The translations under genes and the position numbers were made by a program. DNA of 64,000 nucleotides from a plasmid: assembly GCF_056712565.1 (NCBI RefSeq), contig NZ_JBWXXM010000002.1; one strand, 5' to 3'. This document shows positions 45,230 through 46,706 of the stretch, piece by piece (position 1 is the first letter of the stretch; each line of letters starts with the position of its first letter). The notes below the pieces were generated by a model. That model made no database searches. It worked only from the letters and a program-made list of their open reading frames with translations, and was not told where the DNA came from.

Positions 45230-45691
45230 ATGACAAATTCTCAATCTGATTTTCCTTTGAACGATCAAAATTTTCAGGCAGATTTGCTGAAAATCAAAAA
45301 GGTTTTCGCCGACCTTATAACGCAGGCATCAGATGGTAAGATACCCATAAGGTCTTCTCATGTACACGGCTTACACCATTTCGAGGAGCTCTACATCCGG
45401 GCAAGAGCAGGCATGTGTTCGGTCCTGGGATATCCGGTCATGGTTGTTTCAACTATCTCAGTTAAAGAGCCCGGCACAGGCATTTTTAGAGCGCTTCTTG
45501 CAGAATTGAAATGTATTGCAGATGAACAAAATTACATTTTGAAAATTGAAAATGTACTGCCTCCCCTATTCCGCAAATACCTTATTCAAGAAGGTTTTGT
45601 TTTCCCAGGTGAACCTTGGATGTGTGGTTCCGGCTATTGGTTTAAGAACCCACAAGTACTTCATGAAAATATTGAGTTATTATCTGTTTAA
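45230..45691 (+). CDS. Hypothetical protein (153 aa)
   Basis: ORF only. Confidence 0.4.
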   Translation: MTNSQSDFPLNDQNFQADLLKIKKVFADLITQASDGKIPIRSSHVHGLHHFEELYIRARAGMCSVLGYPVMVVSTISVKEPGTGIFRALLAELKCIADEQNYILKIENVLPPLFRKYLIQEGFVFPGEPWMCGSGYWFKNPQVLHENIELLSV

Positions 45692-45720
45692 GTCGATCTA
45701 ACAATTTCACTGGAGCTAAC

Positions 45721-46128
45721 ATGTCCCCGGAATTGGTATCAGACATTGCAAGAGTGGCGCATGAAAAGCTACTTTCAATTTTAACGGAGTGCGGCATAGA
45801 GAAGACGGCAGGCACTTGCCTTTTTGCAAGCTATCTTGTGTGTTATTTAGCAAAAACTAAAGGTCTAGATGCTGTTGTCCGTGGGGGTAACGGTGCAGAT
45901 GATGGCGGTATATTTATAGAGTGTGGTGGCTTTGGCCATTATTGGTGTGAGTTGAATTTCGAAGAAGTGCAATATTATATTGACATCACTTCCGAACAGT
46001 TTGGGTTTCATCCATACATAGTGAAACTCGCCAACGATATAACAGGATGGCCTCGATATATTCCTGGTGATCAGGAAACGGTCGATAGTCATTTAGAACA
46101 ATTATTACGCGACGGCTATACAGAATAG
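45721..46128 (+). CDS. Hypothetical protein (135 aa) with Cys/His-containing motifs
   Basis: AGTCLFAS ... GFGHYWCEL; 29 nt after upstream gene. Confidence 0.4.
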   Translation: MSPELVSDIARVAHEKLLSILTECGIEKTAGTCLFASYLVCYLAKTKGLDAVVRGGNGADDGGIFIECGGFGHYWCELNFEEVQYYIDITSEQFGFHPYIVKLANDITGWPRYIPGDQETVDSHLEQLLRDGYTE

Positions 46129-46178
46129 GCTGCGTATACCCTATCGCAGCCTTTCAGGCTCTTAACCCTTGTGACCTG

Positions 46179-46706
46179 TTAACGGAACCACTCAGGATGA
46201 CGCTGCCGATCAACTTTGATAACCTGCGAATTAAATTCAACGACATCCGCTGGAGTAAGCATTAATTCATCAGGATTTACAATAAATGGTCTTAAAACCA
46301 CTTCGCCACCGTCTTCTTTTGCACCGTAGATATTAATAAGAAAGTGCAGTCGTTGATTTCCTTCAGCATTGCGTTGCCATTCTCTAAAAGTCAAAGTTTG
46401 TTTAATATAGTTTGTTAAAAGAAATGCGAATTCAGATTCTTCCGTTTGTGAGATACCGATTTTGTTAGACATTTTTTTTAGTATCTTTCCGAGCATGGAC
46501 ACACAGGCATCTAGACTTAACGATGTTGAAATTTTGGTCGTATTAAAATCCTCCTGCGAAAGTGAAATCATCCATGTATTATCTTTATGATAGTCGGTAA
46601 TATAAATAAAATGAGATGTAAAAGGCGTTGAGTGATTGAACTCTCCTAAGTTCCATCCATACTGACTCACTGTATTTGAGCTAAGTTCTTTGTCGGTAAT
46701 GTTCAT
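46179..46706 (-). CDS. Hypothetical protein (175 aa)
   Basis: ORF only; convergent with 45721-46128. Confidence 0.4.
   Translation of the reverse strand: MNITDKELSSNTVSQYGWNLGEFNHSTPFTSHFIYITDYHKDNTWMISLSQEDFNTTKISTSLSLDACVSMLGKILKKMSNKIGISQTEESEFAFLLTNYIKQTLTFREWQRNAEGNQRLHFLINIYGAKEDGGEVVLRPFIVNPDELMLTPADVVEFNSQVIKVDRQRHPEWFR

Follow-up and report, generated by a model that had tools for sequence, protein, structure and literature searches.

What do three adjacent plasmid genes whose products are named only 'hypothetical protein' do for the conjugative elements that carry them, and do they act together? This question is raised by a locus at positions 45230-46706 of a plasmid-derived stretch of 64,000 nucleotides (nt) (NCBI RefSeq assembly GCF_056712565.1, contig NZ_JBWXXM010000002.1), which is referred to below as the window. 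The genes orf153 (45230-45691, plus strand, 153 amino acids) and orf135 (45721-46128, plus strand, 135 amino acids) are separated by 29 nt and converge, across a gap of 50 nt, on orf175 (46179-46706, minus strand, 175 amino acids). The initial annotation, made from the letters alone, had described this layout, including sizes, strands and the 29-nt gap, and it matches the list of open reading frames (ORFs) exactly. The same annotation had pointed to two segments of the 135-residue protein, AGTCLFAS and GFGHYWCEL, both of which are present in the translation, as a possible Cys-His hydrolase-type active site. The interpretation that we slightly favour is that these are three independent backbone genes arranged in two convergent units, and that Orf135 and Orf153 are element-encoded protein-modifying effectors, for which we infer catalytic activity, protein substrates and a role in conflict or establishment.

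Identity of the three genes

The three ORFs are real genes and not chance ORFs, since they are annotated as coding sequences in RefSeq IncHI2 plasmids (under the name quoted above), each exact protein occurs on 1000 contigs or more, each has diverged homologues (38-57% identity) in which residue patterns are conserved, and the ratio of non-synonymous to synonymous substitution rates is below 1 (0.30-0.78 where measurable, with low power). The DNA of the locus matches, at 100% identity, the backbone of conjugative IncHI2 plasmids from Salmonella, E. coli, Klebsiella and Enterobacter, and a 5.4-kb query was covered to at least 80% by 635 plasmid records. Two frameshifted assemblies (P0014 and P0023) were left out. 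The window has a low GC content (35-42%) from about 42 to 47.3 kb, the segment in which the three genes lie.

Predicted structure and active site of Orf135

A word-indexed search retrieved a handful of orf135 relatives only; an exhaustive profile search yielded 267 cluster representatives of the family, 175 of them at E≤1e-10. Most members are stand-alone proteins of 130-170 amino acids; fusions also exist, in some members with an Rmf/CrpP-like domain that scores above the Pfam threshold and in others with weak methyltransferase-like or Lar-like domains. Residues C33, H73, W75, F94, G55 and G56 are invariant in an alignment of 107 family sequences, and D88 and Q93 are conserved in 106 of them. 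The second Cys of the region, C76, located inside GHYWCEL, is kept in 7 of the 107 members only. Cys33 (codon at 45817-45819, plus strand) is the predicted nucleophile, His73 (45937-45939, plus strand), which belongs to an H-x-W-x-E motif, the predicted general base, and Asp88 (45982-45984, plus strand), in a D-I-T motif, the predicted third member of the triad.

The AlphaFold model of Orf135, built on the same alignment, has a predicted local distance difference test (pLDDT) of 96.2 and a predicted template-modelling score (pTM) of 0.89. In this model, helix 33-46 starts with Cys33, His73 is located in strand 69-80 and Asp88 at the end of strand 83-88. This is the topology of papain-like cluster III (the transglutaminase/deamidase/NAT group; Pfam clan CL0125), in which the core helix begins with the Cys and the His and Asp follow on consecutive strands, and the model also shows three-dimensional similarity to established members of this cluster. 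The Cys-His site proposed earlier is substantially right, C33 and H73 being invariant and the model topology fitting, although it was incomplete; the initial interpretation as a whole is supported in part.

The window protein itself has no Pfam hits. When the 107 family members were compared with Pfam, the best E values were 0.0018 for Transglut_core PF01841 (matched by 3 of the 107), 0.032 for Transglut_core3 PF13471 and 0.02 for Tox-PLDMTX PF15645. These sub-threshold hits are coherent with a transglutaminase-like reading of the family, and one variant of the orf135 cluster has been automatically named 'transglutaminase domain-containing protein'. The family falls below the membership thresholds of every named family. 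Because the triad is conserved and the topology of the model is confident, orf135 is predicted to be the founder of an unannotated minimal family of transglutaminase-like thiol enzymes, with the residues of the Cys-His-Asp triad intact.

The nearest structure to Orf135 is that of Atu2299 (PDB 2HLY; DUF2026, PF09641), at a sequence identity of just 14%. This protein, classified in papain-like cluster III, has no known function, and Ser replaces Cys in it (PMC10318531), whereas Orf135 has an invariant Cys at the nucleophile position. None of the 107 members matched PF09641 at E≤0.1, searching PDB chains by sequence or by profile with queries from the orf135 family did not retrieve 2HLY, and no sequence link to 2HLY was found for the alpha-proteobacterial branch of the family. 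Compared with the Transglut_core and BTLCP enzymes (for instance, S. pyogenes TglA, factor XIII, TG2/3, LapG and peptidase C93), Orf135 is a bare core devoid of their beta-sandwich, barrel or periplasmic targeting domains, and its family has invariant features of its own, an RGGDGxxDGG loop and DITADQFG, that are not described for those families. The glutamine deamidase toxins (SseI/Tox-PLDMTX PF15645, the C3 region of Pasteurella PMT, protein-glutaminase) belong, as secreted or injected domains, to larger toxins that target eukaryotic G-proteins, whereas Orf135 is stand-alone, cytoplasmic and plasmid-borne, and shows no secretion signal, delivery domain or adjacent immunity gene.

Orf153, a predicted minimal GNAT

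A search of protein collections returned few relatives of Orf153; by tblastn, the family was found on 1,698 of 72,556 plasmid records. Orf153 matched nothing in Pfam or NCBIfam even at E≤1, and its PDB profile search was empty. A match to phrog_22660 was rejected as chance-level. The structural model displays the features of the GNAT fold, that is, a mixed beta-sheet, helices alpha3 and alpha4, and a V-shaped beta4/beta5 pair. The G82-T83-G84 segment (codons at 45473-45481, plus strand), in which G82 and G84 do not vary across alignment A6, is located between strand 68-78 and helix 85-100 of the model, namely in the beta4-alpha3 loop, and would constitute the loop that binds the pyrophosphate of acyl-CoA (GNAT motif A). 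The motif reads K79-E-P-G82-T-G84 and its first position is Lys, Ser or Tyr, in contrast to the Gln or Arg of Q/R-x-x-G-x-G/A. Orf153 can be likened to minimal GNATs such as the anti-CRISPR AcrVA5 (PDB 6IUF) and the RimI-like solo GNATs of conjugative elements; AcrVA5 is its best match, yet it appears no closer than generic GNATs. On the basis of the model, Orf153 is predicted to be a minimal GNAT-fold protein, similar to acyl-CoA N-acyltransferases.

Two probable convergent units instead of one system

A single system of the three genes is not supported, because each of them occurs without the others in diverged relatives. The trio is found in the same arrangement in loci L078 and L079, a lineage about 90-95% identical and closely related to the IncHI2 plasmids. 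However, L002 carries orf153 and orf135 without orf175, L003 has only orf153 of the trio and L070 only orf175. In L072, homologues of orf135 and orf175 are present 1.1 kb apart, divergently arranged and with a different upstream gene, and orf153 is absent. In an Enterobacter IncHI2 plasmid (L077) whose orf135 is 93% identical, orf153 is missing, and what is left before orf135 is the last ~12 nt of orf153 and the ribosome-binding site (GGAG; 45712-45715 in the window, plus strand, 5 nt before the orf135 ATG as read from the sequence). The orf175 gene of this plasmid (L077 3962-6886) is interrupted by IS5-family elements (ISKpn26), and therefore both orf153 and orf175 are dispensable for plasmid maintenance. 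The orf135 gene also occurs without orf153 in L004/5 and L074-76, and a scan with a 34-sequence subset of the family found it alone in 64 genomic loci across Proteobacteria.

The division into two units rests on the gap between the convergent genes and on the gene order of L070. The gap contains a stem-loop, AGGCTGCG-N10-CGCAGCCT (46127-46152), formed by a perfect 8-bp stem and a 10-nt loop, with a minimum free energy of -16.5 kcal/mol (z -3.46) on the plus strand and -18.3 kcal/mol (z -2.39) on the minus strand. It is missed by the terminator scan because its loop is longer than 8 nt, and it is plausibly a bidirectional terminator. In L070, whose order is intact, a gene of 1111 codons and another of 163 codons precede the orf175 homologue on the same strand. 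For this reason orf175 is read as the distal gene of a leftward unit, apart from orf153-orf135.

TGL2 and a possible two-enzyme module

A second small family, designated here TGL2, shows an invariant C26...H63-x-W65...D74 pattern with a spacing like that of Orf135. It is not encoded in the window, and it was found on 2,212 plasmids, including IncC-like records. Members are located at L080 2012-2950, L081 2011-2950, L078 87-563, L002 4866-5321, L003 6660-7070, L070 6745-7191 and L072 7483-7956. The order is TGL2-GNAT-orf135 in L002 and L078/79 and GNAT-TGL2 in L003; on IncHI1B/IncFIB plasmids of Klebsiella, the two make up a single fusion protein of 312 amino acids (L080) or are encoded by overlapping genes (L081). 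TGL2 occurs without a GNAT in L070 and L072. Membership of TGL2 in the orf135 family, as a diverged branch, was considered and not retained, since hhalign assigns it a probability of 0.3%, and the likeness is a guess at the level of the motif. The only Pfam matches of TGL2 are two to Transglut_core3 at E~0.1.

In L080, a gene for a protein of 218 amino acids (2980-3636) begins 29 nt after the TGL2-GNAT fusion, and NCBI names its truncated copy (L081 3322-3627) 'tgtA5 cluster protein 2', a name that comes from 7-deazaguanine DNA-modification clusters. A methylase subunit of a type I restriction-modification system is encoded just upstream in L080.

The TGL2-GNAT fusion argues that the GNAT may work with a TGL2-type partner. 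Among the explanations that compete with independent effectors, the one that survives best is an obligate module of two enzymes, Orf153 and a TGL-type protein, in which Orf135 here replaces the missing TGL2. Within such a module, one enzyme would modify the protein that the other processes, or would regulate the other. In all lineages observed, the GNAT has a small C..H.W..D protein next to it (Orf135 in the window; TGL2 in L002, L078/79, L003, L080 and L081), and the 29-nt gap together with the good ribosome-binding site of orf135 points to co-transcription of orf153 and orf135. However, the fusion partner of the GNAT is TGL2 and not a member of the orf135 family, with no homology detectable between them by hhalign; orf135 lacks a GNAT in L077, L072, L004/5, L074-76 and the whole wider family, TGL2 does so in L070 and L072, and the fold of TGL2 is putative, the two Transglut_core3 matches mentioned above being at E~0.1. 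An obligate module is unlikely.

Protein-modifying effectors and other explanations

The orf135 family was found on 2,094 plasmids (82% of them predicted to be conjugative) among 72,556, and in none of 50,697 phage records; the orf135 and orf153 families are each present on roughly 2-3% of sequenced plasmids and on no phage. Neighbours of orf135-family genes are variable, but they are typical of the conflict cargo of mobile elements and comprise C5 and N6/N4 DNA methylases, EcoRII-type endonucleases, DpdA, PLD-like and ParB-like proteins, as well as RES, Phd/YefM, NAD-salvage genes, UmuDC and YejK. The effector reading is proposed because both families are restricted to genomic islands and conjugative plasmids, in which their members are small solo genes surrounded by conflict genes (DNA methyltransferases, restriction enzymes, toxin-antitoxin genes, UmuDC). 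A role as protein-modifying effectors in conflict has been predicted for the solo GNATs that conjugative elements carry (PMC5512222), and plasmid anti-defence islands rich in orphan methyltransferases and genes without known function have been documented (PMC11541004).

According to the mechanism proposed, Cys33, at the N-terminus of the core helix, would act as the nucleophile, activated by His73, which in turn would be oriented by Asp88 on the next strand. Through a thioester, Orf135 would capture an amide or acyl group of a substrate, the side chain of a protein Gln or a peptide bond being the most likely targets; resolution of the thioester by water would amount to deamidation or cleavage, and resolution by an amine to transamidation. 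For Orf153, the acyl donor would be acyl-CoA and the acceptor an amine, probably one carried by a protein. The targets of both enzymes would be proteins of the host or of rivals, modified while the element becomes established or is in conflict.

Several observations weigh against this proposal. Direct scans of the three window proteins against Pfam, NCBIfam, PADLOC and PHROGs gave no significant match, and sequence and profile searches of the PDB with all three families gave noise only. None of the 107 orf135-family members reaches the Pfam gathering threshold for PF01841, PF13471 or PF15645, and Foldseek support is weak, with a best E value of 7e-3. The nearest structure has itself no known function and Ser for Cys, and the modelled fold alone does not separate protease, deamidase, transglutaminase and acyltransferase. 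The model of Orf153, built on a 5-sequence alignment, is of moderate confidence only (pLDDT 79.6, pTM 0.77). No characterised member of either family was found in the literature, and searches on the RefSeq accessions and S. pyogenes TglA returned no relevant paper. All-against-all clustering of the neighbours at the 64 orf135 loci, in which high-GC loci gave many spurious shadow ORFs, revealed no conserved partner or target gene, so that nothing points to a substrate. The window contains no transfer genes (a ter cluster, insertion sequence (IS) elements and resistance genes are present), and for this reason it lends no support to a role in the 'leading region' or in early expression; IncH plasmids are not covered by the published transcriptome of early conjugation.

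Besides the obligate module, three other functional readings were considered. In the first, Orf135, as a protein like the arylamine N-acetyltransferases (NATs), and the GNAT Orf153 would be small-molecule acyltransferases that detoxify xenobiotics or antibiotics, that is, accessory resistance genes. The NATs (PF00797) are three-domain enzymes of ~260-290 amino acids, about twice the size of Orf135, in which the extra domains build the cleft for CoA and substrate, whereas Orf135 is only the 135-residue core and lacks the three-domain organisation; PF00797 gave a sub-threshold match in a single one of the 107 family members. In addition, orf153 and orf135 lie on the conserved low-GC backbone outside the resistance region, they are not flagged by predictors of antimicrobial resistance in annotated records, and the neighbours of the orf135 family are DNA-conflict genes and not resistance genes. 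This explanation is improbable.

The second reading, a toxin-antitoxin or addiction pair in which Orf153 would acetylate aminoacyl-tRNA like the GNAT toxins TacT and AtaT and its neighbour would neutralise it, is very improbable. No antitoxin of the RHH/DUF1778 type, as found in the TacT/AtaT systems, is adjacent to orf153, which has 336 bp of non-coding DNA upstream and orf135 downstream. The similarity of Orf153 to TacT/AtaT is no better than to generic GNATs, PADLOC and NCBIfam gave no toxin-antitoxin match for either protein, and each gene occurs without the other, a situation that an addiction pair would not tolerate.

The third reading considers Orf135 (and TGL2) as leader-peptide cysteine proteases in the maturation of ribosomally synthesised and post-translationally modified peptides (RiPPs) or microcin-like products, with the GNAT acetylating the product. 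Transglut_core3, the family of the lasso-peptide protease McjB, gives matches in orf135-family members and TGL2, several small ORFs are found upstream of orf153, and Atu2299/2HLY served as template for a lasso-peptide B protein (PMC9774768). However, all these Transglut_core3 matches are below threshold, the small upstream ORFs encode membrane proteins that are not co-conserved with the wider orf135 family, and no cyclase, RiPP recognition element/PqqD, precursor or exporter is conserved beside that family, which makes this reading barely credible. A single functional system of three convergent genes, already largely refuted, is hardly tenable: the trio kept in window-type IncHI2 plasmids and L078/L079 amounts to ordinary backbone synteny of close relatives, and the proximity of the orf135 and orf175 homologues in L072 comes with a different orientation, while neither L002 nor L003 nor any locus of the wider orf135 family carries orf175, which is present without orf135 in L070 and is parted from the other unit by the terminator-like stem-loop. 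The obligate module, small-molecule, toxin-antitoxin and RiPP explanations are all less well supported than protein-modifying effectors.

Upstream region of orf153

The 336-bp intergenic region upstream of orf153 contains a palindrome similar to the LexA (SOS) box, TACTGTATGTATGTACAGCA (45006-45025), that agrees with the consensus at 17 of 20 positions, including the CTG/CAG cores, and is separated from orf153 by 204 nt. Elsewhere in the 64 kb, such a site occurs just once, at 60630-60649 (18/20), where a box is expected in front of the umuD-like gene. SOS control of orf153-orf135 through this box may exist. The box is not conserved in L002, L003 and L077-L079, no promoter-like site was found beside it on the plus strand, and a literature search on IncHI2 with LexA returned no relevant paper. 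Two minus-strand promoter-like sites overlap or adjoin the box and are directed antisense into an ORF of 76 codons (44663-44893) whose product has two transmembrane segments.

This ORF is one of several small ORFs for predicted membrane proteins (135, 84, 113 and 76 amino acids) at 43594-44893, which are 98-100% conserved in L003. An ORF of 326 codons that comes after the thermonuclease gene (42566-43546) is 52% identical in L002. No family could be assigned to any of the products encoded at 42566-44893.

The leftward unit and the boundary of the resistance region

Homologues of Orf175 are 38-81% identical to it and many His, Asp and Trp residues are invariant. Profiles from Pfam, NCBIfam, PADLOC, PHROGs and the PDB gave no significant match, and weak matches to iSTAND and PDC-M24A were rejected as chance-level.

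Upstream of orf175, the minus strand carries the 5'-truncated remnant of a gene for a membrane protein of ~163 amino acids (46873-47299), annotated in RefSeq as a 'hypothetical protein' of 128 amino acids (46873-47259). In a tblastn comparison, residues 18-163 of the L070 orthologue of 163 amino acids align to 47313-46876 of the window with 61% identity, reaching the transposon end; the similarity extends upstream of the ATG of the 128-codon ORF and the frame is open across the junction. The junction is a 38-bp terminal inverted repeat of the Tn3-family, Tn1721 type, GGGGAGCCCGCAGAATTCGGAAAAAATCGTACGCTAAG (47300-47337), which forms the left boundary of the resistance region and which we take to be that of Tn1721. 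GC content rises at this repeat from ~38% to ~60%, and to its right are found a truncated Tn3-family transposase gene, EamA, tetA, tetR and an integron.

The missing 5' part of the ~163-codon gene is not found beyond the insertion. The backbone resumes instead with a different gene, the first ~240 codons of the 1111-codon gene (58385-59101, minus strand; residues 1-240 of the L070 protein, 94.6% identity by tblastn), which indicates an insertion plus a deletion and not a simple split. The resistance region has thus replaced the rest of the 1111-codon gene and the 5' end of the 163-codon gene. The gene next to orf175 had been described initially as split by a transposon; it is indeed truncated at the Tn1721-type repeat, but no second half exists across the insertion. 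The leftward unit would therefore end with orf175, its upstream genes having been removed by the Tn1721-ended resistance region. The IncH-backbone protein of 1111 amino acids (L070 2029-5364; L002 8372-11707) has no Pfam or PHROG hit at all.

Other features of the window and of related loci

The locus is placed between genes for an orphan Dcm-type methylase and a thermonuclease (40.5-42.6 kb) on one side and UmuDC (60.6-62.3 kb) on the other. To its left, the window carries a ter (tellurite-resistance) cluster with StiP/PRTase/ATP-grasp genes, an IS66 transposase gene, a gene for a HipA-family kinase and an IS21 (istA/istB) insertion beside DUF4942 and DUF1173 genes; these features occupy the stretches 1-13800, 14912-16525, 19505-20830 and 36827-38796.

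Directly upstream of an orf135 homologue of Pseudomonas nitritireducens there is a NAD-salvage-like cluster (L008 852-5426) that encodes an enzyme of the NAPRTase family, an isochorismatase/nicotinamidase-like protein, a cytidylyltransferase-like NMNAT and a NUDIX protein, with an unannotated ORF of 232 codons between them. An RNase T-like exonuclease is encoded downstream. We take this cluster to resemble the NAD+-reconstitution pathways of counter-defence.

Significance

The IncHI2, IncHI1B/IncFIB and IncC plasmids and the Pseudomonas megaplasmids are major carriers of mcr, carbapenemase and multidrug resistance genes, and their backbone is largely annotated as 'hypothetical'. Folds and probable catalytic residues have now been assigned to two such backbone genes, whose products, judged from sequence conservation and structural models, appear to be new families inside well-known superfamilies. 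The GNAT-TGL2 fusion and the frequency of these families on plasmids of clinical importance add somewhat to their interest. It is distinctly unlikely that the orf135, orf153 and TGL2 families together constitute an unrecognised class of effectors of plasmids and integrative and conjugative elements that covalently modify a host defence or DNA-processing protein, by deamidation, cleavage, cross-linking or acetylation, and thereby aid establishment in new hosts; if true, more than 2,000 conjugative plasmids of clinical importance would carry enzymatic anti-defence proteins. Should these small enzymes modify host proteins at establishment, they would offer new targets for blocking the spread of plasmids and would add examples of counter-defence by enzymes. 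Otherwise, the recognition of a transglutaminase-like thiol enzyme and a GNAT would still be a useful annotation of these backbones.

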